This document shows positions 1,450 to 23,371 of a stretch of 33,062 nt of DNA, in pieces; position 1 is the stretch's first letter, and each line of letters starts with the position of its first letter. Both the position numbers and the translations under genes were made by a program. The stretch spans positions 1-33,062 of the IMG/VR virus record IMGVR_UViG_3300048856_000138. One strand, written 5' to 3'. The DNA is from a virus (lineage: Duplodnaviria; Caudoviricetes). Below the pieces are notes generated by a model, which saw only the letters and a list, made by a program, of their open reading frames with translations, did not search any database and had not been told where the DNA came from.

Positions 1450-1493
1450 AAAAACCAAGGGCCGGCTTCTAAACCGAAAGTCAATTTTCTTCG

Positions 1494-2797: not shown

Positions 2798-4793
2798 CGG
2801 GCCTAGAGCCCAAAGCCATTCTCTGTGGAGGCTGGGCGACACGACCGGCCAGTCCAACGCGACCGTTCCGATCCATTTAGCATATTGCGGTATCGTGGCG
2901 GCGCTTCGGCACCATGTGAAAGTGAAAGCGTCAAGTCTCGCAGTCCTCGTTGTTGAGACCCCGGATGCGATCGACACCTTCGCTCACGCCGGCCGCCTCT
3001 TCCTTCGGCAAGCGCTGGGATCGAAAGGATACCATGAGCCGTTCGTCCAGGCCATCAAGCATAAGAAAAATGACAGGCCGACCGACCTTCATGTGTTCCG
3101 GCGCGCGGCCGAGGACGGCAAAGGAATTCTCCTGTGTTCACAACTCGACGACATCGATGAGGAGGTCAGGTTATTCGCAGATGTCGTAACGGCGATTCCG
3201 AAGCCGACACCGAACCAGATTACAGCGGTTTTCCGCAGGTACGGTCACGTCGTGACCCGAGAAGACGAAAAGATGATTGCATCTGAATCTTGGACGCGGT
3301 TGGTATATGCCTTCCAGCCCGATCGCCCCGTAATGGTCGGCCTGCGCCGTCTGCGGGAAACGGCGGCTCAGACGCCAGCGCTGAAAGCGACAACGCCTAC
3401 CAGCGGACCCACGCTTGAGGACCTCAGCGGCTTGGGTTCGGCGAGAGACTGGGGTCTTGAGCTTGCGCGCGATCTAGCCGATTTCAGGGCGGGCCTTGTT
3501 TCGTGGGATGACGTCGATACCGGCGCGCTGATATCCGGTCCGCCGGGAACCGGCAAAACGCTTTTTGCCGAGGCGTTGGCTCGGACCTGCGGCCTCCCGA
3601 TCGTGGTGGCGTCGGCCGCCCAATGGCAAGCCTGCGGCTACTTGAACGACCTTCTCAAAGCCATGCGGGAAAGTTTCAGGGAGGCGCAATCCCGCGGCAC
3701 GGCATTGTTGTTCATCGATGAACTCGACGCAATCGGAAGCCGAGCGATTAACGATAGTCAACACTCTGACTACAAGCGCCAGGTTATCAACGCATTGCTG
3801 GAATTACTTGACGGCTTCGACCGTCGCAGCGGGGTAGTCGTTATCGGCGCTACTAATCATCCGGAGAACATCGATCCTGCACTCCTGCGCCCTGGAAGGC
3901 TTGACCGCCATTTCGCCATATCCCTCCCCGATGCGACCACCCGTCAGCGAATATTTCAGTTCCACGCCAGCTTTACCGTTCCGTCCGACCAAGAGGACCA
4001 GTTCCAGCGTTCGACTGCGGGAATGTCTGGTGCTGGGTTGAAGCAACTCGTCAGGGATGGCCGCCGCGCCGCCCGCCGACAGGGTGCGCCGTTTGGGTTC
4101 GACCATATCGTCAAGGTCGCCAAGCCGCTGATTGATCTTCCCATGGAACATATGCGGGTGGCTGCGTACCACGAAGCTGGACATGCCATCGTCGGCATTC
4201 AAGTTGGTATGGAGCTTCAAGAGATCAGTATCAATGATAAGGTGTTTTCCGAAGGTGTTGATACTCTCGGTGGGACACAGTTCGCGACGCTGAGCTTTCC
4301 TATGAAGACAAGGTCTTTCTTCTTGGGTCACATAGCGATGTTTCTTGCTGGTCTCGCAGCGGAAACAATGGTCTTTGGCGAGTTCACGGAAGCGGCGACG
4401 GGCGATCCAAGATCGGATTTGGGCATTGCGACCGCGCTGGCAACTAAGGTCGAGGCCTGTTTCGGAATGGGGAGCACACTCGCCATAAACACTGTCGAGG
4501 AACGAGACTTGGGTCGGTTGCTTGGCACCGACCCGGTGCTCCGCGTAGCGGTCAGCCAACTCCTCGACAGCGAATTGAAGAGGGCGAAGGCAATTCTGGA
4601 ACTCCGGCACCGAGCGCTACACGCGCTCGCCGAATTTTTGATGGAAGCACGCCTCATGAGCTCCGCAGAGGTCATGAACGTTCTCGACAGATATCCTGCG
4701 GAAACCGGCCCCTTGGTGGCGGACGCCGACAGCCCGGGTTTCTCATCCGTGGCGCTCGACGCGGGTAGCCCGCAGGACCATCAATCAGGTTGA
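2775..4793 (+). CDS. Soluble FtsH-like AAA+ ATPase / M41 zinc protease
   Basis: Walker A GPPGTGKT, Walker B LLFIDELD, SRH 'ATNHPENIDPALLRPGRLDR', zinc motif HEAGH, 'LAGLAAE' and 'SDL..AT'. No obvious transmembrane helices. Start codon uncertain. Confidence 0.9.
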   Translation: MQNSSKRSGPRAQSHSLWRLGDTTGQSNATVPIHLAYCGIVAALRHHVKVKASSLAVLVVETPDAIDTFAHAGRLFLRQALGSKGYHEPFVQAIKHKKNDRPTDLHVFRRAAEDGKGILLCSQLDDIDEEVRLFADVVTAIPKPTPNQITAVFRRYGHVVTREDEKMIASESWTRLVYAFQPDRPVMVGLRRLRETAAQTPALKATTPTSGPTLEDLSGLGSARDWGLELARDLADFRAGLVSWDDVDTGALISGPPGTGKTLFAEALARTCGLPIVVASAAQWQACGYLNDLLKAMRESFREAQSRGTALLFIDELDAIGSRAINDSQHSDYKRQVINALLELLDGFDRRSGVVVIGATNHPENIDPALLRPGRLDRHFAISLPDATTRQRIFQFHASFTVPSDQEDQFQRSTAGMSGAGLKQLVRDGRRAARRQGAPFGFDHIVKVAKPLIDLPMEHMRVAAYHEAGHAIVGIQVGMELQEISINDKVFSEGVDTLGGTQFATLSFPMKTRSFFLGHIAMFLAGLAAETMVFGEFTEAATGDPRSDLGIATALATKVEACFGMGSTLAINTVEERDLGRLLGTDPVLRVAVSQLLDSELKRAKAILELRHRALHALAEFLMEARLMSSAEVMNVLDRYPAETGPLVADADSPGFSSVALDAGSPQDHQSG

Positions 4794-5620: not shown

Positions 5621-6010
5621 ATGGCGAAAACCAGGGTATTTATCAGCTTCGACTACGACCACGATTCTGACCTGAAGGTAATGCTTGCGGGTCAAGCGAA
5701 GCATTCCGATACACCGTTCGAATTTGCCGATTGGTCGATCAAGGAAGCAATCGATTCTAGATGGAAAGACAAGGCGCGGACACGTATCAGGTCTATCGAC
5801 GTGGTGGCAGTAATATGCGGGATGCACACGCATACGGCCACGGGAGTAAGCGCCGAGATTAACATTGCGCAGGAGGAATCCAAGCCGTATTTCTTGCTCA
5901 ACGGATATTCAGGAAAAACTTGCGTGAAGCCGTTACAGGCAAAAGTAACTGATAAGGTCTACGTCTGGACCTGGGACAACTTGAAGATTTTGATCAACGG
6001 TGGACGCTGA
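5621..6010 (+). CDS. thsB: Thoeris ThsB-like (MTH538-type) TIR domain protein
   Basis: 'RVFISFDYDHD', 'FADWSIKE', 'W....RTRIR', 'VICG.HT..A.GV..EI..A' with the catalytic Glu retained; GAGGAG RBS; TGATG coupling to the caspase gene. Confidence 0.9.
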   Translation: MAKTRVFISFDYDHDSDLKVMLAGQAKHSDTPFEFADWSIKEAIDSRWKDKARTRIRSIDVVAVICGMHTHTATGVSAEINIAQEESKPYFLLNGYSGKTCVKPLQAKVTDKVYVWTWDNLKILINGGR

Positions 6011-7002
6011 TGAAAAGGGCGCTGGTCGTTGGTATCGACGACTACCGGAAATATCCGCTCAGAGGCTGCGTCAACGATGCGATTGTCGTCGGCGGCCTCC
6101 TCGAGGCGAACGGCGACGGCTCGCCGAACTTCTCCGTCAGGATGCTGACCAGCAATGAGGAAGAAGTCACCACAGAACTCATACAGGACGCCCTGTCGGA
6201 GCTATTCGAAGGCGATGCCGAAACCGTTCTGTTCTATTTTGCGGGCCACGGGCTGATAAATGTCGAGTCTAATGCTGGTTACATCGTTTCTCAGGATGGA
6301 AAGAAGGGATCGTGGGGCGTTTCGCTCAGCGAGGTCCTTGCCATGGCCAACAAGGCTTACCCACTCATCAAATCAACGGTCATCATTTTGGACAGCTGTC
6401 ACTCCGGCTACGCGGGTGAGGTTGCAGGGCTTACTGCCGACGGGGCTTCGCTGATTGGGAACGGAGTCACGATCCTCACCGCCACCAATCGCTCTGGCAC
6501 GGCCGACGAAATCGGTGGCCATGGCGTCTTCTCGGAAATTCTTATAGACGCAATCCAGGGAGGCTCGGCCGACATATGCGGCCGGATAACTCCGGCATCC
6601 GTTTACGCGCATGTTGACCAAACCCTTGGCGCGTGGGGCCAGCGACCGGTCTACAAGGCTAACGTCCATACCTTCGTCGTCTTACGTTCCGTTGAGCCTA
6701 AGGTCCCGCTGCAGTCGCTGAGAAGGCTGCCTGAGTATTTTCCAGACCGTACGTCTACCTATCCGCTCGACCCGTCATGCGAGCCGAACAGAGGTCAAGA
6801 GACCGAGCGTCTCGCCGATGTGGCGGTCGATGTGTCCAAAGAACGCGTCTACCGCGAGCTGCAAACCTGCAACAGACACGGGCTGGTGAGCCCCGTCGGT
6901 TACGACCACATGTGGGAGGCCGCAATCAACTCGACGGGCTGTCGATTGACCGCTCTCGGAGCCCACTACAGACAGCTGGCGGAGAAAAAGCGTATCTTGT
7001 GA
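6010..7002 (+). CDS. Caspase-like protease (peptidase C14), type IV Thoeris-like effector
   Basis: 'KRALVVGIDDY...LRGCVNDA', catalytic His in 'FYFAGHG' and Cys in 'IILDSCHSG', 'G.F...L..AIQG..AD..G.IT', plus a C-terminal extension of about 100 aa. Confidence 0.93.
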   Translation: MKRALVVGIDDYRKYPLRGCVNDAIVVGGLLEANGDGSPNFSVRMLTSNEEEVTTELIQDALSELFEGDAETVLFYFAGHGLINVESNAGYIVSQDGKKGSWGVSLSEVLAMANKAYPLIKSTVIILDSCHSGYAGEVAGLTADGASLIGNGVTILTATNRSGTADEIGGHGVFSEILIDAIQGGSADICGRITPASVYAHVDQTLGAWGQRPVYKANVHTFVVLRSVEPKVPLQSLRRLPEYFPDRTSTYPLDPSCEPNRGQETERLADVAVDVSKERVYRELQTCNRHGLVSPVGYDHMWEAAINSTGCRLTALGAHYRQLAEKKRIL

Positions 7003-7257: not shown

Positions 7258-8673
7258 ATGATTGCGGAAACTTTGAATCGTGACTTCGTTTTGCGTCAGG
7301 CGGAGATCATACAGAAGCACATCCAATCGAGAAGTTCGCCGCTACGCCGCGGCCTTTCATCGCTGGGCACCGAGGTCGATGCCGCAGACCTTAAAGAAAC
7401 AGCGCAGCTGATCGAAGAAGCGATCAAAAACGAGAAATTCGCGGGACCGGCAGCCGTGATCGACAGCCAGCGCCGCGGCGACGGGATCGATGAGCGAAAC
7501 CAGGCCTTCATCAGCGGCGATCCGGTCATGAGCAATATCCAGAGCGCCTTGGAATTCTATTTCGACGACCCTGGTAGCATGGAAAATGCTTCGCCCCTGA
7601 GACCCTTCGTCGACAAACAACGCGGCGATCGACGCGGATACGTGGAGATGCCGATCGTCACAGATCGCAAACTTATTGGCATACCTACACCATCGCATGG
7701 GAAACGCCGGGTCTTTGATAAGTTTTCGGTATCCGACCCGGGCTGGGTCAGTTCTCTTGTCGCCATGGGTATCGCGCGCTTTAAAAAGCCTCATCCCTTC
7801 AACTCGGAGCCGGCCCCTACCGTAGTCGTCGGCGATATATGCAGGCTGATAGTGGTTGGCGACTGGGGAAGCGGGATTCCTCGCGCGCAGCGAAACGCAC
7901 TCGAGATGCGAAAGCATGTCGAGGCGTCGCTTGCGGAAGGTGCCGAATGCCACGTGGTCCACCTTGGCGACGTCTACTATTCGGGATGGGAATACGAGTA
8001 CCGGGACAGATTTCTTCCCTACTGGCCCGTAAAACCGGAGGAGCACGATAGGGTCGGCTCCTGGTGCCTTAATGGAAACCACGACATGTACTCGGGTGGC
8101 TTCGGGTATTTTGACTATCTGTTGGGCGACCCCCGGTTCGCCAGGCAAAGCAAGTCGAGCTTCTTCCGGCTCGCAAACAACCATTGGCAGCTCCTGGGTC
8201 TCGATACCGCGTGGGACGACAATGGCTTGAAGGACCCTCAATCGGACTGGGTTACGGCGATGACAATGGCGGACGGCCTCAAAACCGTGCTCCTCAGCCA
8301 TCATCAGCTTTTCAGCAGTCGGGAAAGCGGAGAGAACGTCGGCAAGGTTCTCAGGGCTAAGCTTGGCAGAGTCCTCGAAGCAGGGAAAATCGACGCCGCG
8401 CTTTGGGGGCATGAACACCGCTGCATGCTGTTCGAGCCTCACGAAAACGTCCGGTACGGTCGGCTGATCGGGCACGGAGGCGTGCCCGTTTATGCGGACA
8501 AAGGCGCTCTGCTAGCCCCGGCGTCATTTCAAGATATGGATTTCATCACGTCGAAGCTCGGCGAGCACTGGGCGTATATGGGCTTTGCAGTCTTGGACTT
8601 CGATGGCCCTTCCGTCGGCGTGCGATACTTCAACGAGAACGGGCGTCTTGATAAAAAGGAGGTTTTGATTTGA
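7258..8673 (+). CDS. Metallophosphoesterase (purple acid phosphatase/calcineurin-like) with long N-terminal extension
   Basis: GDWG, HLGDVYY, GNHD, LSHH and WGHEH motifs begin only after about 195 aa of N-terminal sequence. Confidence 0.9.
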   Translation: MIAETLNRDFVLRQAEIIQKHIQSRSSPLRRGLSSLGTEVDAADLKETAQLIEEAIKNEKFAGPAAVIDSQRRGDGIDERNQAFISGDPVMSNIQSALEFYFDDPGSMENASPLRPFVDKQRGDRRGYVEMPIVTDRKLIGIPTPSHGKRRVFDKFSVSDPGWVSSLVAMGIARFKKPHPFNSEPAPTVVVGDICRLIVVGDWGSGIPRAQRNALEMRKHVEASLAEGAECHVVHLGDVYYSGWEYEYRDRFLPYWPVKPEEHDRVGSWCLNGNHDMYSGGFGYFDYLLGDPRFARQSKSSFFRLANNHWQLLGLDTAWDDNGLKDPQSDWVTAMTMADGLKTVLLSHHQLFSSRESGENVGKVLRAKLGRVLEAGKIDAALWGHEHRCMLFEPHENVRYGRLIGHGGVPVYADKGALLAPASFQDMDFITSKLGEHWAYMGFAVLDFDGPSVGVRYFNENGRLDKKEVLI

Positions 8674-10589
8674 AAAAAACACGCCCCGAGATGACGCCGG
8701 AATTAGCTGAGGTCATCCGAAGATCAGAATTGCTGGCCAGGTCAGACAGACTTGACACGGCGCTGAGACTCCTAACCGAAGAGGCAAAGTCGGATACCGG
8801 CTTTGTCCTCGTCTACGCGACTCTCGTGGCTATCAGTGAGATGTTGCTTAAAAAGGGACAAACAGCGAAAGCAAAACAACTGGCTGCAGTGTCCCTCGCA
8901 GCATATATGAAACGGAAAGCCGATCTTGAAACCGTTTATGAGTTCCCCGAACTGCCAAAGTCCGGTTTTGGAACGCACAGCTATACCCCCGCCCCTAGCC
9001 GAAAGAGGTCAGTGCGAGCATCATCTAACAAGGGAATGCGGGTGGGGCGGGAAGACTACTTTGGTGGCTATCTGGCCGAACGCCTTTCCCCGGATATTGC
9101 TGGGTCCGACCCGACGGCGTACCTCACTCCGCATCTAGATATAACCCCCGCCGGTAGTCGTGACGACTTGATCGTCGTTGACGTCTATCTCGATAATCAT
9201 GATTTCGCAGCCGGTGAGTTCGGTGAGAAGGTCGGCGCCCCTCACGGAACCGAGGTGCTGGTCCAGCTTTTCACGACAAAACACTTTGAGATCGTGGGCT
9301 CGGGTGTCGCGACTTTCCTATTCGACAGCAAAGCCAAACGTATCGACATGGCAAGCTTTCACCTGAGAGTGGCAGCTGTTCCTGACGACGATATCACGTC
9401 GCCTGCAATAACGGCGCTTTTCTCAGTAAACGGGCGTCCGTGCGGGAAAATCGCTCGCTCGGTTAAATTCGATGGGACACCTGTAGAGATAGTCGCTTTG
9501 GCGGCGGTGGCTTTCAACGTGGAGCCCGCCGTCGTCGATCCTGCTAGTTTGACAGTGACCATAATCAGCAACCCCACAAACGATGGACGGCAATTCTTCT
9601 GCACGGTTTCATCCCCGCATCTGTCGGATATTGGGCCCTCCGACTGGAACCTCCCAAGCAGCGCCCAAAGCCTCGTCAGCGGATTCATGAACAAGTTCAC
9701 CGCGTCGACCAAAAGCTCCCAGATGATTGCCGAGCTTGTAGGAGCTGGAAAGCTCCTGTTCGAAGCTGCCCCGGAAAACTTCCGTCGCGCCTTTTGGGCA
9801 TTGATTGATGGAAACCGGCCCTTGACCAGCATCGCGATTGTCAGCGAGGAGGCCTATATTCCATGGGAGCTTATGGTCCCGACCCGACAAACAGCTGCGG
9901 GCTTGGAGGAAAGGGCGAATCCAATCGGGGTCGACTTTGCGATCGGTCGATGGATTCTCAAGGTGCAATCGCCGTCGCGGAAGATTTCGATCGATGAATC
10001 AATTGTGATCGCCCCCGAGTATGCCGGTGGCAACGTCTTGATAAACGCTCAGAAGGAAGCCGAACTTGTCTCGGGACAATTCCGAGGCCCGATAGTGCGT
10101 CCGGCGGACTTTGAGGCCGTCGCGCTTGCACTGGTGTCGAAATATTCGCTTCTTCATTTCGTGTGTCACGGCAAAGACAAAGCCTTGGACGGTCAGGCCA
10201 TCGACCTTGATGACAGCGACGAACTGACGACAGGGAACTTGAGAGGCATTGAAGGGATAGCGGCGGCTTTCCGGTCCAAGGCTCCAGTCGTTTTCCTCAA
10301 CGCCTGTGAAGTCGGCCGTGGCAGTCCAGCACTTGTAGGGCCGGGCGGCTTCGCTTCGCAATTCATTACGCTAGGCGCTAGAGCGGTCATAGCGCCGCTT
10401 TGGAGCGTGGAAGACTCAGTGGCCCACGACATAGCACTTGAGTTCTACGAGGCTTTAGAGCGTGATCCGACGACACCGCTTGCAAACATCTTTTCACGAG
10501 TGCGGGCCAAAGCGTACGTCCAAGGTTCAGGTAAGGACACTTATGCGGCTTACTGTTTCTTCGGCGATCCGTTGGCGGTGTTGAGCTGA
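8670..10589 (+). CDS. CHAT-domain (caspase/HetF clan) protease with N-terminal helical and beta-rich domains
   Basis: 'IPWEL', His in 'LLHFVCHG', Cys in 'VFLNACEVG', 'GARAVIAPLWSVEDSVA..IA..FY', 'AYCFFGDP'. TTG start overlaps the upstream stop, with an AGGAGG RBS. Confidence 0.92.
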   Translation: MKKTRPEMTPELAEVIRRSELLARSDRLDTALRLLTEEAKSDTGFVLVYATLVAISEMLLKKGQTAKAKQLAAVSLAAYMKRKADLETVYEFPELPKSGFGTHSYTPAPSRKRSVRASSNKGMRVGREDYFGGYLAERLSPDIAGSDPTAYLTPHLDITPAGSRDDLIVVDVYLDNHDFAAGEFGEKVGAPHGTEVLVQLFTTKHFEIVGSGVATFLFDSKAKRIDMASFHLRVAAVPDDDITSPAITALFSVNGRPCGKIARSVKFDGTPVEIVALAAVAFNVEPAVVDPASLTVTIISNPTNDGRQFFCTVSSPHLSDIGPSDWNLPSSAQSLVSGFMNKFTASTKSSQMIAELVGAGKLLFEAAPENFRRAFWALIDGNRPLTSIAIVSEEAYIPWELMVPTRQTAAGLEERANPIGVDFAIGRWILKVQSPSRKISIDESIVIAPEYAGGNVLINAQKEAELVSGQFRGPIVRPADFEAVALALVSKYSLLHFVCHGKDKALDGQAIDLDDSDELTTGNLRGIEGIAAAFRSKAPVVFLNACEVGRGSPALVGPGGFASQFITLGARAVIAPLWSVEDSVAHDIALEFYEALERDPTTPLANIFSRVRAKAYVQGSGKDTYAAYCFFGDPLAVLS

Positions 10590-10591
10590 TG

Positions 10592-11071
10592 TCAGTCGGT
10601 GTCGCGAACAGCGCGCGTGATCGGGTCAATGATGGTCACCGGAACCGAGCTATCACGGGCGTACTTCACGATATCGGCCGTCCCACCGAAGCCTCGGGAG
10701 CGTTCTCCGTCCCAGATGGCGATCAATCGGTCCACATTTTGCACAATGAAACACCCGGCGTCGAAAAACGCCTGTTCCGGTTTATTTCCGGAGGCCATCT
10801 CTATCGCCTGACATTTCGTAAGCATTTTTCGATAACGAAGAAGTGCGTTAGCCGCAAAAAATCGTTCGTAGTCGGAGATAGGTATTATGGCAACGACGGT
10901 CCCGCCACGATCCAGCATCGCCTCGGCAAACACCTGATCACTCCCTTCTGCAAGGGACGAGTAGCCTTCCAAAGGCGCAGACAGGCGATCAAGGTTCAGA
11001 TCGACCTGCTGACGAACCCAGTGCCAGTCGATGCCGACCCGCTTCTGATGGCCCGTTACTCCAACCTTCAT
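10592..11071 (-). CDS. Stand-alone SLOG superfamily (YspA/DUF1273-like) nucleotide-binding protein
   Basis: 'VGVTGH', 'SSLAEGSDQVFAE', 'D.LIAIWDG....GFGGTADIV.YA....VPV..I'. Start at ATG 11071 with a GGAGG RBS; the ORF track starts at 11092. Confidence 0.88.
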   Translation of the reverse strand: MKVGVTGHQKRVGIDWHWVRQQVDLNLDRLSAPLEGYSSLAEGSDQVFAEAMLDRGGTVVAIIPISDYERFFAANALLRYRKMLTKCQAIEMASGNKPEQAFFDAGCFIVQNVDRLIAIWDGERSRGFGGTADIVKYARDSSVPVTIIDPITRAVRDTD

Positions 11072-11297
11072 CGGTGCCTCCCCTCGTTCCATAAGCGTTC
11101 TCGCCGGCGACAGGGCGAAGTCGGCACGAGATACGCCTCAAAACGCACTCCAACATATCCACGAGATATCGCTTTCAGGCCATCTTACAAGTTTTTTGAA
11201 TTGGAGCAGGGCACTGCATAGTCTATCGTCACGCAATGGAAGTCCCACCGTCCTGGACCAGAAGATCAGAGGCGGGGCATATTTAGGCAGCCGCTCC

Positions 11298-12203
11298 GTG
11301 GAATCATATCTCGAAATTGCTAAGCGGATATTGCGCGAAGCCAGGCGACCATTGACGGCGAAGGCTATGCTGGACGCTGCCTATCGCGCTGACATCGTCC
11401 CACCACACCTTCACGGCAAGACGCAGCATAAGACGCTCCAGGCGAGGCTCAGCGAAGATATCCTCAAGAACAAGCGGAATTCTGTCTTCTATCGCACGGA
11501 ACCGGGGTATTTTTTCCTGACTGAATTTCAGAGCGATCCCTTAATACCCGAGAAGTTCAGGGTGCCGTTCCCCGCAAGGCGGCGTACTCGCGACCTCTCG
11601 CGCGGACCGATCCTAGCAATGCTGAATTCGCCCAATATCGACTGCGGCGAAGGAGATCGCTGGCTTGATGAGGCAATAGCGAAAGGCCTACTACTGTATG
11701 CGGACCCCAAGGACGCCTCCCCCGACATCGTCTTCCTCTGGACGTTTGCGATGGTCGTCCGCGGCGACCAAGTCCTCTCATATCGTGTCGGCCGTTACCG
11801 CGACGATCGTGACAGCTTCGCTAACAAGCGCACCGTTGGCTTCTCCAACGTCGTCCACGCTGACTACCGGACCTTTTTCAACCAGGATGATTACGGGATC
11901 ATGGAAAGTGCTACGACAGCAGTCCTAACTGATCTCGATATCTCCAATTCCTTCGAAATTTTCAACGGCGACGGCGTAAGGCCTACGATCCAGTCCGTAT
12001 GCGTCTCTCACCAGCACGGCAAGTCGCCGGCATATGTGGCCTTCATCCGCCTGACCTGTCCCGAATGGTTCGAGCCGACGAGCCGCAGGCTCTCACTCAA
12101 CGACCTTCGATGGCTCGACGTAACGACGACGCCCAATCACCTCGAGGACTTCGATCCATGGTCGCAGGTGGCCCTGGAGCGTCGATACGCCCAAGCGGTT
12201 TAA
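11298..12203 (+). CDS. HARE-HTH (winged helix) domain fused to a NUDIX-like fold domain
   Basis: N-terminal 'SYLEIAKRILREARRPLTAKAM....GKTQHKTLQARLSEDI....S.FYRT.PG.F.L' is HARE-HTH. C-terminal 'VVRGDQVLSYR...KRTVGF' resembles predicted NUDIX phosphoesterases with a degenerate Nudix box. GTG 11298 preferred over TTG 11196. Confidence 0.78.
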   Translation: MESYLEIAKRILREARRPLTAKAMLDAAYRADIVPPHLHGKTQHKTLQARLSEDILKNKRNSVFYRTEPGYFFLTEFQSDPLIPEKFRVPFPARRRTRDLSRGPILAMLNSPNIDCGEGDRWLDEAIAKGLLLYADPKDASPDIVFLWTFAMVVRGDQVLSYRVGRYRDDRDSFANKRTVGFSNVVHADYRTFFNQDDYGIMESATTAVLTDLDISNSFEIFNGDGVRPTIQSVCVSHQHGKSPAYVAFIRLTCPEWFEPTSRRLSLNDLRWLDVTTTPNHLEDFDPWSQVALERRYAQAV

Positions 12204-12218
12204 GCTGGGTTCGACACA

Positions 12219-13895
12219 TTGAAACCCCCGATCGATCCTATTTACGCTCAGTTTCTGAAGATGGAGCTGGAGTCCGGTGAACCCCGCCGGATAAAAGTCG
12301 CGTTGCAGGAAATCTGCCGTCAATACCGCCGCGGCTCAGGCCTCCGCGAACCCATCAAGACGAACATCGAGACCATAATATCTGGCCTGTTGATAAGGGT
12401 AAGCCAGGACATGAAAGTTGTTCGCTGGTGCCTGAATGCAATCGCGCAGTTCGGTCGCAAAGACTACAGCCTCAATGGCGTGCTGCAGTCGATCGAGACT
12501 CACCGAGACAATCCAGAAATTGCCGGGTCCGCAGTCGCAGCGCTCTTCAAAATCGATAGCAAGACCTTGAAGGACGCCAACAGGATCACCGTGTTGCCGC
12601 GCGAGATCATAGCGCTTGGCGCCCTCCAAAACACCCATCCAAGCCGGCTGGATTTAACGGGGGTCCGCATCAATATCGAACGAGCAGCGCCCGACGTCCT
12701 GAAACTGGCGTTGATCACGGTCGGAATCGACAAGGCTGTCGAAAACCTGTTCGATCCGAAATTCACGAACCAGCAAATCGTGCAGGCCCTTGGAAAGCAC
12801 GACGATGCGATCGTGAAGCAATACAGCGTGTGGGCTATTCTTGAGAACTCACTGCTGTCAGCCGCCGACCTCGGCGTCGACCTTACCAATCTTGATCGCG
12901 AGCCGGTCAACGTCCGCGCGAAGGTGTATAGCCTCCTGGCGGCGGAGAACGGAGATGTCAAGCGACGACACGAGTTCATCCTCCAGGGGTCGGACGATCT
13001 TGAGGCCGAGGCTAGGAGCGGCTTGGCCAGTACGTTGAAGGATGTCTGGTATGACAGCCTCGATACCGTGACCGTCCCTTGGTACGAAGACGAAACCGAT
13101 CCTATAGTGCGCGAGGGACTTCTGGATCACTTCGCGAAATTCGCTGGCGATTCTCCAAGCTATGAGGAAATCGCGGTCGAGGCTTTCAAGACAAATCCCG
13201 CTGTCCGCGATCGTCTATACGGCATGGCAGCTGGAAAACCCCTTTATGGACGGTTCAAAAGAATCGATCTCGCAGGAGAGACACCGAACCTCTTCAAAGA
13301 GGACGGCTTCCAACAGGAAGGCAGCCATAGAAAAACGCCTGCCATGAAGATTCTGATGCTCGGCGCGAGCCCTGCGGACGAAGAAGTCCTACGAGTCAAC
13401 GCCGAGAACAGGGAAATCAAGCGCCAGATCGAAAGCATCGGAGAACGCCCGTTGCAGATAGACACGGAATTTGCTGTCAGGGTTTCCGATCTGCAAAGGC
13501 ACATGCTGAAAGCAAAACCAACTATTCTTCACTTCAGTGGCCACGGCGACACTGGAAGCTGGCTCGTTTTTGAGGATGATGGAGGCAATGCCTACCCCGT
13601 TGAACCGGACGCGCTCGCCGATTTGATGAAAATATTCAAAAGCGAATTGCAGTGCGTGGTGCTGAATTGCTGTTACTCGAATGCGCTGGCCGAGGCGATT
13701 GCAAAGCATATCCCGATCGTCATAGGCTGCGACGGTTCCGTCGTCGACAGCGCGGCGACATCGTTTTCCGTCGGGTTCTATCGCGGCCTGGCTAGCGGTA
13801 AAGACTTCAGCCAGTCTTTCGAACTCGGCGTAAATGAGATCAACCTGACTTCAGACAGGTCGTTGTCTGAAATGTACAGAATTCACAAACGCTGA
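12219..13895 (+). CDS. HEAT/ARM-like helical repeat protein with C-terminal CHAT protease domain
   Basis: About 370 aa of helical repeats ('D.KVVRWCLNAIAQFG', 'DDAIVKQYSVWA'), then 'KILMLGASP....LRV..E.REI', 'ILHFSGHG' (His), 'VVLNCCYS' (Cys), 'FS.GFY.GLASG'. Confidence 0.9.
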   Translation: MKPPIDPIYAQFLKMELESGEPRRIKVALQEICRQYRRGSGLREPIKTNIETIISGLLIRVSQDMKVVRWCLNAIAQFGRKDYSLNGVLQSIETHRDNPEIAGSAVAALFKIDSKTLKDANRITVLPREIIALGALQNTHPSRLDLTGVRINIERAAPDVLKLALITVGIDKAVENLFDPKFTNQQIVQALGKHDDAIVKQYSVWAILENSLLSAADLGVDLTNLDREPVNVRAKVYSLLAAENGDVKRRHEFILQGSDDLEAEARSGLASTLKDVWYDSLDTVTVPWYEDETDPIVREGLLDHFAKFAGDSPSYEEIAVEAFKTNPAVRDRLYGMAAGKPLYGRFKRIDLAGETPNLFKEDGFQQEGSHRKTPAMKILMLGASPADEEVLRVNAENREIKRQIESIGERPLQIDTEFAVRVSDLQRHMLKAKPTILHFSGHGDTGSWLVFEDDGGNAYPVEPDALADLMKIFKSELQCVVLNCCYSNALAEAIAKHIPIVIGCDGSVVDSAATSFSVGFYRGLASGKDFSQSFELGVNEINLTSDRSLSEMYRIHKR

Positions 13896-14039: not shown

Positions 14040-15185
14040 TCATCGCAATTCCGAGACGAGGATCAGCGTATCAACGTCGATCCCTTTCGCAGCCCTTATT
14101 TCGATGAGGTCCGGTTCGCCCGGCAAAGCTTGTTCGATCATTTCCCGAGCCTGCGCGACCGCATGACCGACGGACTGTGCGCCACCGATAGCGGAGTAGA
14201 AATGCCCGGCGAAAAGGCTGGCAGACAAGTCCGCGACCGAATCCGGCATCGCGATCAGAACCGGCACCGCTTCGAGCAACACCGCGGCCCCTTCGAGTGA
14301 CCGGCAAGCGTTGAGTACAAGCAGCGTAGGAGGGAAGTTCGTAGCTTCCAGAATACGGCGTAGCCGGGTGAAATCCATCATCTGCCCGATCGGCGTCTCG
14401 ATCAACGCGTCGTCGAAGAGCAGTCCGTCGCCGTTACCATGCCCTGAGAAATGGATGACGTGCGGTCTTAGGTCGTTCAACCCATTGAGGAGGTCTTCCG
14501 GCGTTGCCGCTGGCCTGTGGTGAAGCTCGATCAGGTCACGGTGCTTGACCGATCGCATTCGTTTGAGGACATTGTTCACCTCGGCATCCACTCTAAGTGG
14601 ATCATCAAGGTTAGGGCTCGAGGTGAGATAGAGGACTCTCAGCTTCTCCGGCTCCGGCTGGCGTTCGATTATATGCCGTACGGTAAACATGGAAAGGCGA
14701 CCTATTTCGCGGGCGTGGCTTTTCTCGGTCTGCCGCCGTCGAGCATCGTCTCGGCTGCGTGCGTCCGCCTCCGACTTCTCCTTGCGTTTTCTCGCGTCAT
14801 CACCCCGCGCAAGCTTGTCACGTTCGGCTTTTTCCTCTCGTTTGGCCTGCTTTTCCTTCCGTTCAGCCTCCCCGCGCTCGCTCTTTAGGGCGGATGTGAG
14901 CCTTGCCTCCGCTTTTTGCTGCTTGGAAACAACCGCCGCTACTTTGCCCTGAAGGTCAGCGATCTTTCTCTCGGCAACGGCGGCTTTGTTTCGCTCCCCC
15001 TCCGCCGCCTTCGTATATGAGCTGCGAGACGACGCAGAGGAGGACCTAGCTGCCAACGCAGCCTTCTTTGAAGACTCCGAACGCGCCTTAGATGAGATAG
15101 AGATTTGGGCAGCGATGTCCTTCTGGAGTTTCGCCAAATCTGTCTGAAGCCGAGCCAGCTCGCTCCTATAAGTGGTTGATCCCAT
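14040..15185 (-). CDS. Coiled-coil protein with C-terminal CHAT protease domain
   Basis: K/E/R/A/S-rich heptad N-terminus, then 'LRVLYLTSSP....LRVDAEV', 'VIHFSGHG' (His), 'LVLNACRS' (Cys). Likely start ATG 15185; the ORF track extends to 15272. Confidence 0.9.
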   Translation of the reverse strand: MGSTTYRSELARLQTDLAKLQKDIAAQISISSKARSESSKKAALAARSSSASSRSSYTKAAEGERNKAAVAERKIADLQGKVAAVVSKQQKAEARLTSALKSERGEAERKEKQAKREEKAERDKLARGDDARKRKEKSEADARSRDDARRRQTEKSHAREIGRLSMFTVRHIIERQPEPEKLRVLYLTSSPNLDDPLRVDAEVNNVLKRMRSVKHRDLIELHHRPAATPEDLLNGLNDLRPHVIHFSGHGNGDGLLFDDALIETPIGQMMDFTRLRRILEATNFPPTLLVLNACRSLEGAAVLLEAVPVLIAMPDSVADLSASLFAGHFYSAIGGAQSVGHAVAQAREMIEQALPGEPDLIEIRAAKGIDVDTLILVSELR

Positions 15186-15390
15186 CGAGTCTGCCGCCCG
15201 ATCTTCTTCCGATGCTTCGTCGGACTTAGGTGGGCTTTCTTCTGCGTTCGTCAACTGCGCAAACCTTGTCAAGGCGGCTCGATCCCACAGACGTACCCCG
15301 GATCAAGCGATATTTCGGCCCACCGAAATCAGCGGGGCGCCGTCGGGCTGCATTTCCTCAACGTGACTTTCCGCCAGCCAGCCCCTAGCG

Positions 15391-16243: not shown

Positions 16244-18427
16244 TCAAAATGACTCCTTCTGTTTTTGTGGAAAAGCTGCCAATACGTGAGAACAGTTCTC
16301 GCCGTCGCTCCAGATCGTCAGGTCGTCTGGAAAGGCAGGAGACGACCGCGCGTCCCAGGTCCAGACGAACACACGATCCGGATCGACCATGCCGGCGGGT
16401 GCCGCCTCGCCCTGCCACCAGCCATGATGCGCTTCGAGGAACCGTCGCTGCTGGCTGTCGGATCGTCCGCCGGACGAGAAATACGGCAGGCTGCTTTCCA
16501 CCGATTTCGGATCGACAAACACATTCGGCTGGTTGGCGCCCTTGTCGACAGCCGGGCAACCCAGTTCGGTAAACCAGATCGGCTTCATCCCGGGCAACCA
16601 GGCAGTCGCCGCCGCACTCTCCACGCCGCCCACCCGGTTATAGTGACGGTTGCCCCACCAGCCCTCGAGATCCTTGGCGCGATACACCCAGGGCTTGCCC
16701 GCCGACCCGTCCGTGATCGGCGAGCGCAACCGGTTCGCTCGGTCGGCGTCGCTTGCATAATACCAGTCGAAGCCCTCGCCCGCCGCAATCTGCGCCGCCA
16801 TCGCCGCCCGGTCGTCGCAGGACCGGAACCCATCCGGATTTGCCGCCGCCAGATCCCCGTCGCGCCAGTCGGCGAGCGGCATGTAATTGTCGATCCCGAC
16901 CGCATCGATATGAGGCGAGGTCCAGAGCGGATCGAGATGAAACAGCACATCGCCTGTGCCATCCTGCGGGTGGTAGCCGAAATACTCGCTCCAGTCGGCG
17001 CCATAGGTCAGCGCTGTCGCCGGTCCGACAAGCGCCCGCACATCCGATGCCAAAGTCACCAGCGCCTCGACAAACGGAAACGCACCGGTCTGATCGCGGA
17101 TCTGCGTCAGCCCCCGCAGTTCCGATCCGATCACCAGCCCGTCGACGCCCCCGGCCGTACTGGCGAGCCCCGCATAGTGCAGAACCATCCGCCGATAGCC
17201 GTCCGCCCCGTTGGCAAAAGCCTCGACCTGCGTCCTCGCAACCGCGGTCCTGTCGGCAGTCCCCGCCAGTGCCGCTGCCGGATGACAGGTGATCCGCCCG
17301 CGCCAGGGATAGCTCGCCTGCTCCGCCTCACCATAGGGATCGGCCAGACCATTGCCCGGCGCGATGTCCATCATCACGAACGGATAGAGAAAGACCTTCA
17401 GCCCACGCGCCTTGAGATCCGCGATCGCAGCCAGCACGCTCGCGTCCCCAGGCGTGCCGCCATAGGCCGGGCCGCCTCCCGACGAACTGACGCGATGCGC
17501 CGCGCTTCTGACCACCCCGGCAACCGACCATGCCGTACTCTCGTCACGCCGCGTCTCCACCTCGACACCCGGCAGAATGCGGCATTGCCCGGCACGCAGA
17601 TCCGTCCCGAACCAGGCGACGACCAGCGCCACGCTTTCAAGATTGGGGCAGAGCGCCTGCAGTTCGTCGAGCGACGCCTGCCAGTCGGTCTCAGCCACCA
17701 TCGTATTGCGGTTGAGAATGCGGGCGCTGCCCTCCGCCGTCTTCTCGGTCACCTGAACCGTGTGATAGCCATGCTCGGTCGCGCCGGGAATGATCGTCAC
17801 CGCCCGGATCTGTGTCTCTAGCGTCCCGACCGGCCGCACCACCTCGAACTGCAGCAGCGGAATGCGGTTGCCGAACGGCTCCAGCGGCAACCGGTCGAAC
17901 ACGACATAGGCGAGCCCGCGATAAGCCGGCGCATGACCTTCGCCCTGCTTGGCCTCGATCAGCGGATCCGGCAACTGCGTCTCGTCGCCGACATGAGCGC
18001 GCATCTCGATCGCCGTCAGGTCCAATTCCTGGCCATCGGCCCAGACGCGCCGCACGCAGGCGATCGGCCCCTCGCAGAGCCCGACCGCAAAGCTGGCGAA
18101 ATACTGAAACGTTTCCGTCTGAGACCCGCCCGTCGCCTTGCCACCGCTCCGCTCCCGCGTTGCCTCCTCCTCGAAACGCGTCGCCCAGATGAGCGTGCCC
18201 CCGATCCTTGAGGTGCCATAAACCCGGGTGACCGGCGCCCCTTCGTCCGCCCCCGGAATACGCGCCGTCGCGAGCCTCGCGCCCGAGACTGTCGAGGAAC
18301 CGCCGAGCAGTGCCCGATCGACGACGCTCCCCGCCAACGCCCCCGCCGCCCGCCCGAGGATCGCCCCGACAGGACCGAATACCCCGCCAAGTGCTGCGCC
18401 CGCCGCCTGAAACAGGATCGTCGCCAT
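16244..18427 (-). pseudogene. GTA baseplate multidomain protein 'megatron' (g15), 3'-truncated
   Basis: 'MATILFQAAGAALG', 'PAYRGLAYVVF', GTA TIM-barrel motifs 'YGADWSEY', 'IDNYMPLADWRDG', 'KPIWFTELGC', 'WTWDAR'. Sequence diverges after 'WSDGEN' and stops at 727 aa, whereas intact homologs are about 1300 aa. Confidence 0.9.
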
Positions 18428-18519
18428 AAAAACCCCTCACGCCGCCCCAGTCGTGAACCGGATGCGCGCTCATGTTGTGGATCTATCGGATTTTGGGTGG
18501 GAGGTGGCTGCCTCCTCGG

Positions 18520-18590
18520 TGGCGGCCCCTCACCCTAACCCGCTCGCGGGGAGAAGGGACCGCAGGACGCAGCCGGATGAGAGGCACGCA
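18520..18590. repeat. Degenerate rhizobial intergenic palindromic (RIME-like) repeat
   Basis: 'CCCCTCACCCTAACC...GCGGGGAGAAGGGAC...GCCGGATGAGAGGC' resembles common Rhizobiaceae repeat motifs; related sequence at about 25930-25992. Confidence 0.5.
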
Positions 18591-18749
18591 AGCCCACACA
18601 TCCGCCACCTAGATACCCGCTAAAATTGTGATACCGTATCGGCGTTTGGAAACAGAATGCAGCACGCGCCGAGCCAGCCGGCGCACTGGCGGAGATGGGC
18701 TCCGCCAGCTTAGGCAGGGAGCCTTGTTTCCAACCATGGAGGTGATGTC

Positions 18750-18839
18750 ATGAGGCTTTGGCCAATTGGCATGGCGCTTATCGTGAGGGTGACCCGGACG
18801 GGCTGGTCAGTGTCCGTCCGGATCTCATTCGCTAGATAA
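18750..18839 (+). CDS. Unannotated 29-aa hydrophobic/basic small peptide
   Basis: GGAGGTG RBS, then MRLWPIGMALIVRVTRTGWSVSVRISFAR; structured leader upstream and hairpin downstream. Confidence 0.6.
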   Translation: MRLWPIGMALIVRVTRTGWSVSVRISFAR

Positions 18840-18845
18840 GCAATC

Positions 18846-18875
18846 TGATGGGTGGGGTTCCAGCCCCATCCATCA
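18846..18875 (+). terminator. Stem-loop after the small ORF (possible bidirectional terminator)
   Basis: TGATGGGTGGGGT-TCCA-GCCCCATCCATCA, 13-bp stem including G-U pairs; no U-tail. Confidence 0.5.
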
Positions 18876-18907
18876 CTCCATGACTATACTCCGGTCATCG
18901 CCAAGTT

Positions 18908-19351
18908 TCAACCATCCCTTGCCGGCGGAAACCGGTGCACGGCAGCGATTTTGCGGCGCCAGGAGGGCACCAGAACCGAGCGTGTCACCGCCACCTGCTC
19001 GTAGGCATGAATGAAATACGACGGCCCAACGAATATACCCGCATGCTTCACCATCGTGTCCGACCGCCAGCGAAACAGCAGCAGATCGCCGGATTGCATC
19101 TGCCCGAGGCCAAGTGCCGGTCCGAACAACCGGATGCCAGCGTCCAGCAGCCTGTCCTCGCCGCCCCGTTCTGCCCAGTCGCGCGCATAGGGCGCCACCG
19201 GTTCCAGCTCCACGCCGTAAAGCTCCCGCCAGATGCCGCGGATCAAGCCTATGCAATCGCAGCCGATGCCGCGCGTTGCGCCCTGATGCCGATAGGGCGT
19301 GCCGATCCAGCTCTCTGCCACCGCGACGATCCGCTCTCCGGCGGCGCTCAT
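18908..19351 (-). CDS. GTA NlpC/P60 cell wall peptidase (g14)
   Basis: 'SWIGTPYRHQG....GCDCIGLIRGIWREL', 'KHAGI', 'FIHAY'; syntenic position. Confidence 0.95.
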   Translation of the reverse strand: MSAAGERIVAVAESWIGTPYRHQGATRGIGCDCIGLIRGIWRELYGVELEPVAPYARDWAERGGEDRLLDAGIRLFGPALGLGQMQSGDLLLFRWRSDTMVKHAGIFVGPSYFIHAYEQVAVTRSVLVPSWRRKIAAVHRFPPARDG

Positions 19352-20223
19352 TCGAACAGCGCCCCGCCATCATGCAGACGCTCGCCATCCACATAGGAAT
19401 AGGCGAAATCTGCGCCCGGCACATGCGGAAAACCGCGGAAATTGAGAAGGTTCGCAAACCGCCCCCGGCACGTCGAAACCGTCTTGTCGCAACCGGCCGT
19501 CAGCGTCACCGCCTGCCCGGGAACGACCGCCTGCTCCAGCGGCAACCAGAATGTCAGCACCGCCTTGCCGTCGTCGCGTCGCTCGTAAAGCTCGACATCG
19601 ACCTGCAGCCCGGCCGCAAATTCCGCAATGCCACGGCCGAAAAATCCATCGGCAAAACCGGACAGACTCGACACGACGATGCGGCTTTTATCGATCACTG
19701 CATCCACCATGCCATTCCCTCGCCAGGCCGAGAGGTCCACCCGGCAGCGCGCATCACCAAGGCTTGCGTCGCAACGCCTGCCATAGACACGGCCCTGCGG
19801 CTGCCCCAGCCGATGCGCAAGGCTGCGCAGCTCCGCCCTGAAGGCCCCGCCCGATCGCGAAACTTCGCCGATCTCGCGAACGTTCAAAAGCATATGCTGA
19901 GCGGGATCCGCCCAGTTGACCACGAACAGCTCGACCCGCGCGCCGTCATAGCGCCCGCTTGCGAGATCCGCCTCGTCGATCGCCGCGCTCGAGAGGCCAC
20001 CCTCCACCTCTTCCGCGCTGGCGGCCATGCCCAGCGCCTGTTCCGCCTCGCTCGCCGCAAAACCGCTCGCCGCCAGAAACGTCGTTCCGTCGAAGACCAG
20101 ATCGCGATCATGCTCGGTAAACCCCAGAACCGCCGCGTCACGTCGCGTCACCCGCCAGCCGTAGCAGATCGTGGTCGCCTCGCCCGCAAGATGGCCTGCC
20201 AGACCCGCCGGTATCGCCCTCAT
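19348..20223 (-). CDS. GTA baseplate hub protein (g13, DUF2163)
   Basis: 'LGFTEHDRDL', 'GRYDGA.V', 'CDA.LGDARC', 'AGCDK....C..RF.N..NFRGFPHVPG'. Confidence 0.95.
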   Translation of the reverse strand: MRAIPAGLAGHLAGEATTICYGWRVTRRDAAVLGFTEHDRDLVFDGTTFLAASGFAASEAEQALGMAASAEEVEGGLSSAAIDEADLASGRYDGARVELFVVNWADPAQHMLLNVREIGEVSRSGGAFRAELRSLAHRLGQPQGRVYGRRCDASLGDARCRVDLSAWRGNGMVDAVIDKSRIVVSSLSGFADGFFGRGIAEFAAGLQVDVELYERRDDGKAVLTFWLPLEQAVVPGQAVTLTAGCDKTVSTCRGRFANLLNFRGFPHVPGADFAYSYVDGERLHDGGALFE

Positions 20224-20858
20224 GCCAGCACCTCCGTCAATGGAATGGCCGGGATCCGCCCGGCATCGAAATGCGCCAGATTGATCTCGATCCGGTCGGT
20301 ATCGAAGCGCACGGCCACGTCGAATTCGAACCCGGCCCGCACGATCTGGCCGGCTGCCGGCACATGCCCGGCCGCAAACGTCACGGTGCCGGTCGTCGTA
20401 TCGACAGTGAAGGAGCTCGCCGCCTTCGCCACGCCGCCGACCGACACGACCACCGTTCCCGCCACCGGCTTGGTGATCCGTCGCTCCCAGCTGCCGGCCG
20501 CATCCGCATAGGTTTTTGTCAGCGAGAACGCCGAGGTCGCCCCGTCGCCGACCCCGATCCGCTGGTCGCTTGCAGAGATCACCTGCCCCGGGCCGCAGGA
20601 TTTCCAGTCGACCGGATCGCGAAACCGAAACCCGTAGAGCTGGCCGCCGCGTGCCTCGAAGAATTCCAGAACCGCATAGAGATCGGCAATCGATTTCACA
20701 CCGGATCCGGCCTCATAGCTTCGCCGTGAATCCCGCCAGCGCTGGTTGCGGGCCTCCCGTCCATTCGACAGGTTGACGATATCGGTCCGGCGCACAGGTC
20801 CTCCGGAGGCGCCAAGCGCCACCCGCAGGGGAAAGCGCACCTCATGAAATCCGCTCAT
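20220..20858 (-). CDS. GTA distal tail protein (g12, DUF2460)
   Basis: 'FHEVRFP....GASGGP.RRT', 'FFEARGGQLYGFRFRDP.D', 'AGFEFDV.VRFDTD'. Confidence 0.95.
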   Translation of the reverse strand: MSGFHEVRFPLRVALGASGGPVRRTDIVNLSNGREARNQRWRDSRRSYEAGSGVKSIADLYAVLEFFEARGGQLYGFRFRDPVDWKSCGPGQVISASDQRIGVGDGATSAFSLTKTYADAAGSWERRITKPVAGTVVVSVGGVAKAASSFTVDTTTGTVTFAAGHVPAAGQIVRAGFEFDVAVRFDTDRIEINLAHFDAGRIPAIPLTEVLA

Positions 20859-20867
20859 CGCTGCCCC

Positions 20868-21404
20868 TCACAATCCTCGGTTTCCGCGCGAAACGCTGCG
20901 TGCCAGCATCGCCGAAATCTGGCCTTCGCTTTTGCGGAAACTTGCCGCATCCGTCGCCGTCACGTTGAACACCACCTGCGCTCCCCCGCCGCCGCCAGCT
21001 GAGGCCACGCCGAGCGCGCCGTCCGGTCCGCGCCGAAGCGGCAGGATCGCCTCGGCCCCCGCCTCGCCCATCAGCCCGGTCCCGCCGCCCATCGAAAAGA
21101 AGGTCGGCGCCCGCACGACGCCGCCATCGGCAAACGGCGTCACCGAACCGATCAGCCCGCTCACCGCATTGCCCAGCAGACTTTCGAGCGGTTTCAGCCC
21201 CGCGGACAGCGAAATTTCCGCCAGCCGGTTGCCGAGCCCCTTCAGCACGTCGTCGAGCCCCTTGCCACGCGTCGTCGCCGAGCTCAGCGCACTGATCAAA
21301 GCCCGGCCGAACCGGTCCGAGCGCGCCTCGAGATCCGCCATCACACCAGACAAGGCCTCAGCCCCCGTCACGGCCGCACCGAACGTCTCATCATCTGGAT
21401 CCAT
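20868..21404 (-). CDS. GTA tail tape measure protein (g11)
   Basis: 'PFADGGVV..PT.F.M....GLMGEAGAEAILPL.RG.DG.LGV', 'DAASFRKSEGQI'; short length typical of GTAs. Confidence 0.93.
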   Translation of the reverse strand: MDPDDETFGAAVTGAEALSGVMADLEARSDRFGRALISALSSATTRGKGLDDVLKGLGNRLAEISLSAGLKPLESLLGNAVSGLIGSVTPFADGGVVRAPTFFSMGGGTGLMGEAGAEAILPLRRGPDGALGVASAGGGGGAQVVFNVTATDAASFRKSEGQISAMLARSVSRGNRGL

Positions 21405-21509
21405 GGCATCCGCTCCCGTTCAAATTTCGCCGATCCGCCGACTTGCGGCAGGCAAGAACAATGCTAGATTGCATTATTCATCGTCACTCCTTATGATGGA
21501 GGAAGCCAG

Positions 21510-22280: not shown

Positions 22281-22293
22281 AGCGCAAGGTGCA

Positions 22294-22509
22294 CTAGCCA
22301 TCCGGAAAAGCCCGCATCAGCGTCTCCAGCCCGGCACGCTCGATCGACGTCGGGCGTTTCACCAGACCGCCGGTTGCGGCAAACAGCTCTCTTGGCGTCA
22401 TCGCCCAGAATTGCGGTGCGGAAAGCCGCAGCAGGCAGAGACCGGCATGCATGGCCGCATCCCATGGAAAAGGCTCAAACACCTGCACCTTCCCGCCCGC
22501 TGCGGCCAT
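22294..22509 (-). CDS. GTA tail assembly chaperone, second ORF (g10.1, rcc01693 family)
   Basis: 'FPW.A.M..GL..LRL....FWAMTPREL', 'L..LM..FPD'. Confidence 0.92.
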   Translation of the reverse strand: MAAAGGKVQVFEPFPWDAAMHAGLCLLRLSAPQFWAMTPRELFAATGGLVKRPTSIERAGLETLMRAFPDG

Positions 22510-22859: not shown

Positions 22860-22879
22860 GAAATCCCCCTTTCATGCTC

Positions 22880-23287: not shown

Positions 23288-23371
23288 GTCCCGATCCTTT
23301 TTCCAACCGCTTTCAAGTATTGATGCTTTCGGGTTTCGTGCCGACCTGCTACAGCCGCGGGGCACTTCCCC

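Follow-up and report, generated by a model that had tools for sequence, protein, structure and literature searches.

A conserved two-gene module joining a HARE-HTH protein with a degenerate NUDIX domain to a solenoid-CHAT protease, a candidate anti-phage system

The window analyzed here is a 33,062-nt stretch of DNA (IMG/VR record IMGVR_UViG_3300048856_000138). Two adjacent genes on its plus strand were studied, and their features are as follows.

11298..12203, plus strand: gene 1, 301 aa, HARE-HTH and degenerate NUDIX domain, GTG start; the frame is open from 11196
11307..11525, plus strand: HARE-HTH winged helix, aa 4-76, with the conserved GKTQHKTLQARLSEDI segment (PF05066 and conservation)
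11577..11591, plus strand: basic linker R94-R98 (RRRTR), at least 90% conserved in the 91 scaffold-linked rows
11604..12197, plus strand: NUDIX-fold domain of the TM1382 type, aa 103-300 (Foldseek, profile search, structure alignment and conservation)
11916..11933, plus strand: degenerate NUDIX box, TAVLTD, replacing RExxEE; 0 of 91 scaffold-linked rows keep the glutamates
12204..12218, plus strand: intergenic gap, 15 bp
12219..13895, plus strand: gene 2, 558 aa, ARM/HEAT solenoid, linker and CHAT protease, TTG start
12237..13277, plus strand: ARM/HEAT solenoid scaffold, aa 7-353 (model and fold matches)
13278..13343, plus strand: disordered linker, aa 354-375, with NLF at 357-359 (model pLDDT and motif comparison)
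13344..13892, plus strand: CHAT domain, aa 376-557, from an in-frame ATG (M376) (Pfam and homologue alignment)
13542..13544 and 13671..13673, plus strand: catalytic H442 and C485, invariant in 101 of 101 homologue rows

This layout agrees with an earlier, sequence-only reading of the window, which described a two-gene operon with a 15-bp gap. An upstream TTG at 11196 was ruled out as the start of gene 1 because relatives begin at the position of MDSYL (11298).

The N-terminal part of gene 1 matched the HARE-HTH family PF05066 above the Pfam gathering cutoff (E 2.9e-6; 28.0 bits vs. 25.9). The RRRTR linker that follows probably contacts nucleic acid, and about half of the conserved positions in the scaffold-linked alignment of gene 1 fall in the HTH or this linker. 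A PDB sequence search with gene 1 alone gave no match. With an AlphaFold2 model of gene 1 (81-row alignment, pLDDT 87), the top Foldseek match was TM1382 (3E57, E 2.7e-6), and all matches listed were NUDIX proteins. Alignment of the model to TM1382 (VIA) covered 172 residues with a Z of 15.9 and an rmsd of 2.8, and 3E57 was also recovered independently by a 22-row gene-1 profile (E 0.022). By its predicted fold, gene 1 is a member of the NUDIX superfamily. The canonical NUDIX box, GX5EX7REUXEE, contains metal-binding glutamates. Gene 1 has TAVLTD where box-retaining relatives have RE(L/I)xEE, so the glutamates of an active NUDIX hydrolase are missing; a YRxGRYR loop is conserved in the same domain. 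Judged on its sequence, gene 1 is a pseudo-enzyme whose catalytic residues are gone. The sequence-only reading had described a HARE-HTH fused to a NUDIX-like domain without the canonical box and had left the fold to a Foldseek check; both the fusion and the fold were confirmed.

Gene 2 was modeled from a 101-row alignment (pLDDT 92). The model is all-helical over residues 7-353, falls below a pLDDT of 50 at 355-357 and 360-370, and continues as a CHAT domain from 376 to 557. The protein matched CHAT PF12770 in Pfam (E 2.9e-7) and the SAVED-CHAT structure 8TL0 (E 1.4e-9, Z 23.8, 27% identity), and it has both the fold and the His-Cys dyad of clan CD CHAT proteases. The proposed order of helical scaffold, flexible linker and intact CHAT protease is therefore upheld by the model and the invariant dyad. 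The best fold matches of the helical part include armadillo/importin-alpha solenoids. Its earlier name, a HEAT-repeat scaffold, fits the solenoid fold, but Pfam HEAT models did not match the window gene 2 itself, and only weak HEAT_2 matches were found in its homologues. Since ARM proteins match the fold no less than HEAT proteins do, we use the more cautious term “ARM/HEAT solenoid.” Directly after the scaffold, a [DSG][LM]F motif occurs in 72 of 89 relatives compared to 10 of 1334 control windows; the NLF of the window falls outside this strict pattern.

Linkage of the two genes was measured in 160 gene-1 loci, the best 80 of 83 from genomes and the best 80 of 90 from metagenomes. The scaffold gene was directly downstream of gene 1 in 129 of them. 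The remaining loci had a second partner (12), a contig end within 300 nt (16) or no partner (3), and two of the three partnerless loci had a shortened gene 1. In 125 of 128 relatives, the scaffold model began between -90 and +60 nt from the stop codon of gene 1. Searches that started from the scaffold added 10 loci, at least 2 of them duplicates of earlier ones; gene 1 lay upstream of the scaffold in 9, and the tenth locus starts inside the scaffold. Gene 1 was also upstream in all 8 plasmid records with the scaffold. FastTree trees of 91 dereplicated pairs were congruent (Spearman 0.87, Mantel p 0.001, 37 of 38 strong splits shared). These comparisons indicate that gene 1 and the scaffold are inherited as a unit, and the co-conservation on which the earlier reading depended was borne out. 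Congruent trees do not demonstrate contact between the proteins. Inter-protein covariation, calculated from 95 pairs (Neff ~80), placed its top scores on a few columns recurring across many pairs. Because the same columns also top the list within gene 1, the covariation was read as clade signal and not as contacts.

The pair is rare, taxonomically concentrated and patchy. Among the best 80 of 83 genome loci, 74 were labelled Alphaproteobacteria, and besides the centre the scaffold was present in 0 of 400 class genomes and 4 of 400 order genomes. Gene 2 was broken beside an intact gene 1 in 10 loci from 7 independent lineages; two of 12 initial calls (L075 and L152) were rejected, as gene 2 was intact on inspection. 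The reverse, with only gene 1 broken, was not seen in the same locus set, in which both genes were broken in 4 loci and 22 fell at contig edges. The asymmetry of 7 to 0 lineages gives p ~0.04 (calculated by hand) and is biased because the loci were fetched with gene 1. This pattern weakly suggests a guard role for gene 1. In Zymomonas, the scaffold gene is intact, and the partner beside it keeps the HTH but shows no alignment to the NUDIX profile over its C-terminal half.

The effector end of the scaffold protein differs among relatives. In 146 loci with a full-length gene 1, the scaffold C-terminus was CHAT in 44, a helical domain in 47 and a PNP/MTA nucleosidase in 4; the rest had the scaffold only (4), the second partner (11) or an unassigned C-terminus (36). 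The helical domain is about 125 aa long and is led by an Asn/Gly-rich stretch. It had no credible Pfam family, and the Atlas gave only leads scoring below 0.9 (DUF4404, in 21% of one cluster, and TCAD2). The effector label changes twice on the 91-row scaffold tree, and on the gene-1 tree the CHAT carriers fall into a single clade. As reconstructed from these trees, each of the three effectors arose about once, and the swaps are old and few. The survey of C-termini thus found the alternative effectors that had been predicted, but exchange between them is rare. CHAT, PNP and helical effectors are typical of conflict systems, and the available text of PMC7159879 describes PNPase and caspase effectors in other such systems.

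Distant relatives of gene 1 give clues to what its NUDIX domain may bind. Gene 1 has 780 homologues among 1581 candidates, and the distant relatives were collected by a profile search (259 clusters at E 1e-30 or better). Some of these keep the KQ, GFGGHV and RExxEE motifs of TM1382-type NUDIX hydrolases, whose fold gene 1 shares; in contrast to those hydrolases, gene 1 has an N-terminal HARE-HTH, and the window clade has lost all three motifs. The box glutamates are kept in all 3 HARE-HTH-NUDIX-kinase fusions (L164, P0376 and P0387), in L072, in P0383 and in 12 of 123 other representatives. None of the 91 scaffold-linked rows and none of the 9 convergent rows of gene 1 keep them. Retention of the box is thus a feature of HARE-HTH-NUDIX(-kinase) forms; the scaffold-linked proteins lack the glutamates, while other residues in them stay conserved.

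In one distant clade, gene 1 lies tail-to-tail with an operon encoding an HD nucleotidase-like protein, an NMP-kinase-like protein and a PNP protein of about 625 aa. This last protein has an uncharacterized N-terminal domain unrelated to the ARM/HEAT scaffold. It is the second partner (Nx), found in 12 loci and convergent with gene 1 in 11 of them, and the Atlas had no usable match for it. In L072, a similar PNP partner is encoded on the strand of gene 1, and a methyltransferase gene is divergent. The box-intact kinase fusion L164 faces a methyltransferase-SIR2-HAM1 operon, a setting that matches the KomBC-plus-methyltransferase layout named in the available part of 10.1101/2024.12.20.629578; a search for more context around the kinase fusion gave nothing. 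Within the scaffold clade, kinase or methyltransferase neighbors occur only in L151 and L152, and in L152 they face the pair. One further candidate, G236, was dropped since it looks like an unrelated HARE-HTH restriction protein. The distribution of the box and the nucleotide-enzyme neighbors show that the family from which gene 1 derives is linked to nucleotide handling and that gene 1 has turned into a pseudo-enzyme. Modified DNA fits the context of the distant relatives (kinase, HD, HAM1, PNP and methyltransferase) less well than nucleotides do.

Around the pair, the GC content is 53-59% as far as about 17 kb, and beyond that point it is 60-68%. The same island has a TIR gene and a caspase gene 5 kb upstream of the pair, a metallophosphoesterase with a 639-aa CHAT protein, a SLOG-like gene and a coiled-coil CHAT gene. 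GTA-like genes come after the island. From the GTA genes and the names of nearest homologues, we infer that the window is chromosome-like DNA of a Rhizobiaceae-type host. A search of 50,697 phage records gave no match to gene 1. An uncontrolled scan of 85 flanking ORFs, chosen by hand and mostly the longer of about 200 candidates, found about 12 of restriction or defence type, 13 mobile-element ORFs and 29 without a family, the rest being mostly housekeeping. Promoter and terminator scans gave chance-level results.

Searches of PADLOC-DB 2.0.0, NCBIfam 20 and Pfam found no model for the pair. Gene 1 had no PADLOC or NCBIfam match, and gene 2 had only a generic CHAT match (PADLOC, aa 416-548; NCBIfam, E 0.073). 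In the main texts of the open literature searched, we found no published description of the two genes and no HARE-HTH together with NUDIX, though the 2012 HARE-HTH paper may list such fusions; the available part of 10.64898/2025.12.03.692087 mentions neither NUDIX nor CHAT. The two-gene module therefore appears to be undescribed. Neither gene has the STAND or NACHT NTPase domain of NLR-type systems (Avs, bNACHT) in Pfam searches or in the models. Like SAVED-CHAT (8TL0) and TPR-CHAT proteins, gene 2 joins a CHAT His/Cys dyad to a regulatory domain, but it has no SAVED domain, no CRISPR or cyclase context was seen in the window, and regulation would involve an ARM/HEAT solenoid and a separate HTH-NUDIX partner. 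Type IV Thoeris, a TIR plus a caspase, also uses a protease effector, and TIR and caspase genes lie in the same island; however, these are separate from the pair and found with it in one other locus only, and the pair itself has no TIR.

The closest parallel is Kongming. In the available text of 10.1101/2024.12.20.629578, KomB is a dead HAM1, a house-cleaning pyrophosphatase fold, that co-evolves with and binds its SIR2 effector; gene 1 is likewise a dead enzyme of this kind co-evolving with an effector partner, and relatives in both families associate with kinases, nucleotidases and SAM methyltransferases. The pair is not a Kongming system, since neither gene has the HAM1-like KomB or SIR2-like KomC domain (KomA is usually present as well). 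It instead combines a NUDIX with HARE-HTH and an ARM/HEAT scaffold with CHAT, PNP or helical effectors, and has no deaminase. By analogy, the best reading is that the pair would work like KomBC as a nucleotide-gated module.

The pair is a real, conserved two-gene module and most likely an anti-phage system. We tentatively propose, with a probability of roughly 0.4, that it acts by abortive infection, with gene 1 binding the scaffold and gating the effector in response to an abnormal-nucleotide cue. The dead NUDIX domain would bind a (d)NTP that is non-canonical or altered by the phage, or else a related nucleotide, just as the dead HAM1 KomB does, while the HARE-HTH and basic linker would hold gene 1 on DNA. 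Gene 1 would keep the scaffold-effector off until the ligand arrives. The released protease, whose His/Cys chemistry is established, would then arrest the infected cell, a role that a nucleosidase or helical domain might play in relatives, and an internal start may add free effector. The sporadic distribution, the low-GC island with TIR-caspase and CHAT genes, and the plasmid copies all speak for this proposal. On the other side, the scaffold clade itself encodes no enzyme that makes a signal nucleotide, the Zymomonas partner has no recognizable NUDIX half, and many flanking genes are housekeeping. One-to-one docking poorly explains why gene 1 has two unrelated scaffolds, the second of them usually convergent. 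If the proposal is true, NUDIX joins the house-cleaning enzymes turned immune sensors, beside HAM1 in Kongming. Because the family grades from kinase fusions with an intact box to dead forms, its ligand is open to direct test, and the pair would be a small two-gene caspase-like system for the alphaproteobacteria, where few defence systems have been tested.

An alternative explanation is that gene 1 is a ligand-responsive transcription factor of its own operon, with its domains reversed relative to NrtR, while the solenoid senses a phage protein and triggers the effector. NrtR is a ligand-responsive regulator with the domain order opposite to that of gene 1. An HTH with a non-catalytic NUDIX in one chain is the recipe of NrtR and AraR, and both appeared in the fold search (3GZ5 and 5BS6, Z 10.9 and 10.6). 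A regulator could also serve unrelated partners on either strand. Solenoids often bind proteins, as is established for importin-alpha, the fold that gene 2 matched. We consider this unlikely because the HTH family and NUDIX subfamily differ from those of NrtR and AraR, with TM1382 the nearer fold, and because the co-divergence of the two genes is nearly perfect, which exceeds what a regulator usually needs. No operator was found either: over 200 nt of upstream sequence from each of 89 diverse copies of gene 1, the top dyad occurred 5 times vs. a shuffle maximum of 5 and the top 7-mer 11 times vs. 12, a comparison that diverged operators would escape. HARE-HTH has moreover been asserted to be a reader of modified bases in fusions to restriction nucleases (PMC10853773, available text). 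In a different and rather improbable alternative, gene 1 is an activator and not a guard, reading modified or foreign DNA through its HARE-HTH, then docking on and oligomerizing the scaffold to turn CHAT on. The weight of conserved positions in the HTH and linker, the persistence of the HTH in Zymomonas, the restriction genes flanking several loci and the precedent of CHAT activation by assembly in the SAVED-CHAT filament are all in its favor. If gene 1 were an activator, losing it should do no harm, yet our biased sample had no locus in which only gene 1 was broken, and the distant contexts are nucleotide enzymes and not DNA modification. Modified-DNA sensing and inflammasome assembly, as the sequence-only reading proposed for the pair, are guesses.

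It is more doubtful that the genes form a toxin-antitoxin addiction module of plasmids and islands, with gene 1 as antitoxin and repressor, gene 2 as toxin and no phage-specific trigger. The antitoxin-first order, the tight coupling, the HTH in gene 1, the loss asymmetry and the location on conjugative plasmids would all be expected of such a module. However, a constant antitoxin facing three unrelated effectors and two scaffolds must act on the scaffold and not on the toxin, and a conserved solenoid of 350 aa is excessive for simple addiction. Least probable by far is a larger protease cascade in which the pair is a single step and its neighbors (TIR-caspase, SLOG, metallophosphoesterase-CHAT and coiled-coil CHAT) supply the others. 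The same six neighbors do surround the pair on pTi_AR125, in another order and at 34-54% identity, but among 178 loci compared the full set occurs only there, the metallophosphoesterase alone is found in one more, and most copies of the pair stand alone.

A variant of nucleotide surveillance, which we consider improbable, would make the pair a new immune family and concerns the junction between scaffold and effector. Here the DNA-tethered dead NUDIX would read a phage-altered nucleotide and switch the scaffold, and the activated full-length protein would nucleate free copies of the effector made from an internal start in its own gene, in the helical type via the Asn/Gly-rich motif, so that one gene would supply both receptor and amplifier. 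The CHAT genes showed a weaker, scattered internal-start signal (30 of 44), and the four scaffold-PNP genes showed none. In the window, Shine-Dalgarno (SD) pairing in the linker is weak and at the null level (best site -1.0 vs. null -1.7), though an ATG lies at the CHAT boundary. The signal was strong in genes with the helical effector, where the column at the domain start is ATG or GTG in 38 of 43. Valines in this column are encoded by GTG in 30 of 32 cases vs. 24% elsewhere in the same genes. SD pairing at this start averaged -7.6 kcal/mol compared to -2.5 kcal/mol for synonymous shuffles and was stronger in 41 of 43 genes; the p-values for the internal start are overstated because the rows are related. 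Given this conserved start with its SD, a free effector isoform is likely in the helical-effector relatives. The start could possibly be a relic of fusion, but its retention across divergent genes favors its being used. A conserved internal start at a scaffold-effector junction would be a little-studied route to a free effector isoform from a defence gene. Of four helical-effector loci found later, three have GTG with an SD and one has ATG with a weak SD.

The pair (the HARE-HTH/dead-NUDIX gene and the scaffold-CHAT gene) is accompanied by other genes in the island, the 53-59% GC stretch around it. The window features discussed here are as follows.

886-4793: double-HTH regulator, metallophosphoesterase and FtsH-like AAA/M41 protein, on the island's left side
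5621-7002: TIR (ThsB-like) and caspase pair
7258-10589: operon of metallophosphoesterase and 639-aa CHAT protein
10592-11092: SLOG-like gene
13287-13295: linker motif site, [DSG][LM]F in relatives
14040-15272: coiled-coil CHAT gene
16244-33062: GTA-like gene cluster, high GC

The metallophosphoesterase/CHAT operon and the coiled-coil CHAT gene form a protease-rich island. Both adjoin the pair again on pTi_AR125 (L178), with 47-54% identity. The TIR and caspase pair resembles type IV Thoeris. In the window, the SLOG-like gene is 3.6 kb from the TIR and caspase genes; on pTi_AR125, the caspase is directly followed by the SLOG homologue. The GTA-like cluster is probably the reason for the record's viral classification. 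Its large TIM-barrel gene (727 aa) terminates at the island edge and, therefore, may have been cut by the island insertion.

Related genes were also found in the following settings at other fetched loci.

L042, 5814-7265: scaffold gene ending in the helical domain, with an internal start signal
L076, L078-L080, L153-L156, L158 and L160: HD nucleotidase, NMP kinase and unknown-domain-PNP genes in a conserved operon, convergent with a dead HARE-HTH-NUDIX gene
L164, 6357-10273 (G328:C1): methyltransferase, SIR2 and HAM1 genes opposite a HARE-HTH-NUDIX-kinase fusion
L177, 3627-4448 (Zymomonas plasmid pZZ6.01): gene-1 equivalent adjoining an intact scaffold-helical gene

The HD nucleotidase operon and its convergent gene probably constitute a separate, undescribed system. 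All seven unknown-domain-PNP genes examined have a start codon just ahead of the PNP domain, at a distance of 1-5 residues. At L164, the methyltransferase, SIR2 and HAM1 genes are KomBC-like, as in Kongming, and the NUDIX box of the opposing kinase fusion is intact; this gene set is a candidate Kongming subtype working with a methylated nucleotide. The Zymomonas gene retains the HTH, and its C-terminal half gave no alignment to the NUDIX profile.

The linker motif resembles a sliding-clamp-binding motif. Contrary to this likeness, Gln precedes it in just 9 of the 72 motif-bearing genes, and it may dock back on the solenoid instead of binding the clamp. In the helical-effector scaffold genes, an internal Shine-Dalgarno sequence and GTG/ATG are conserved where the Asn/Gly-rich motif and helical domain begin. 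Look-alikes of this domain occur in the Atlas as stand-alone proteins of 124-138 aa (scores <0.9).
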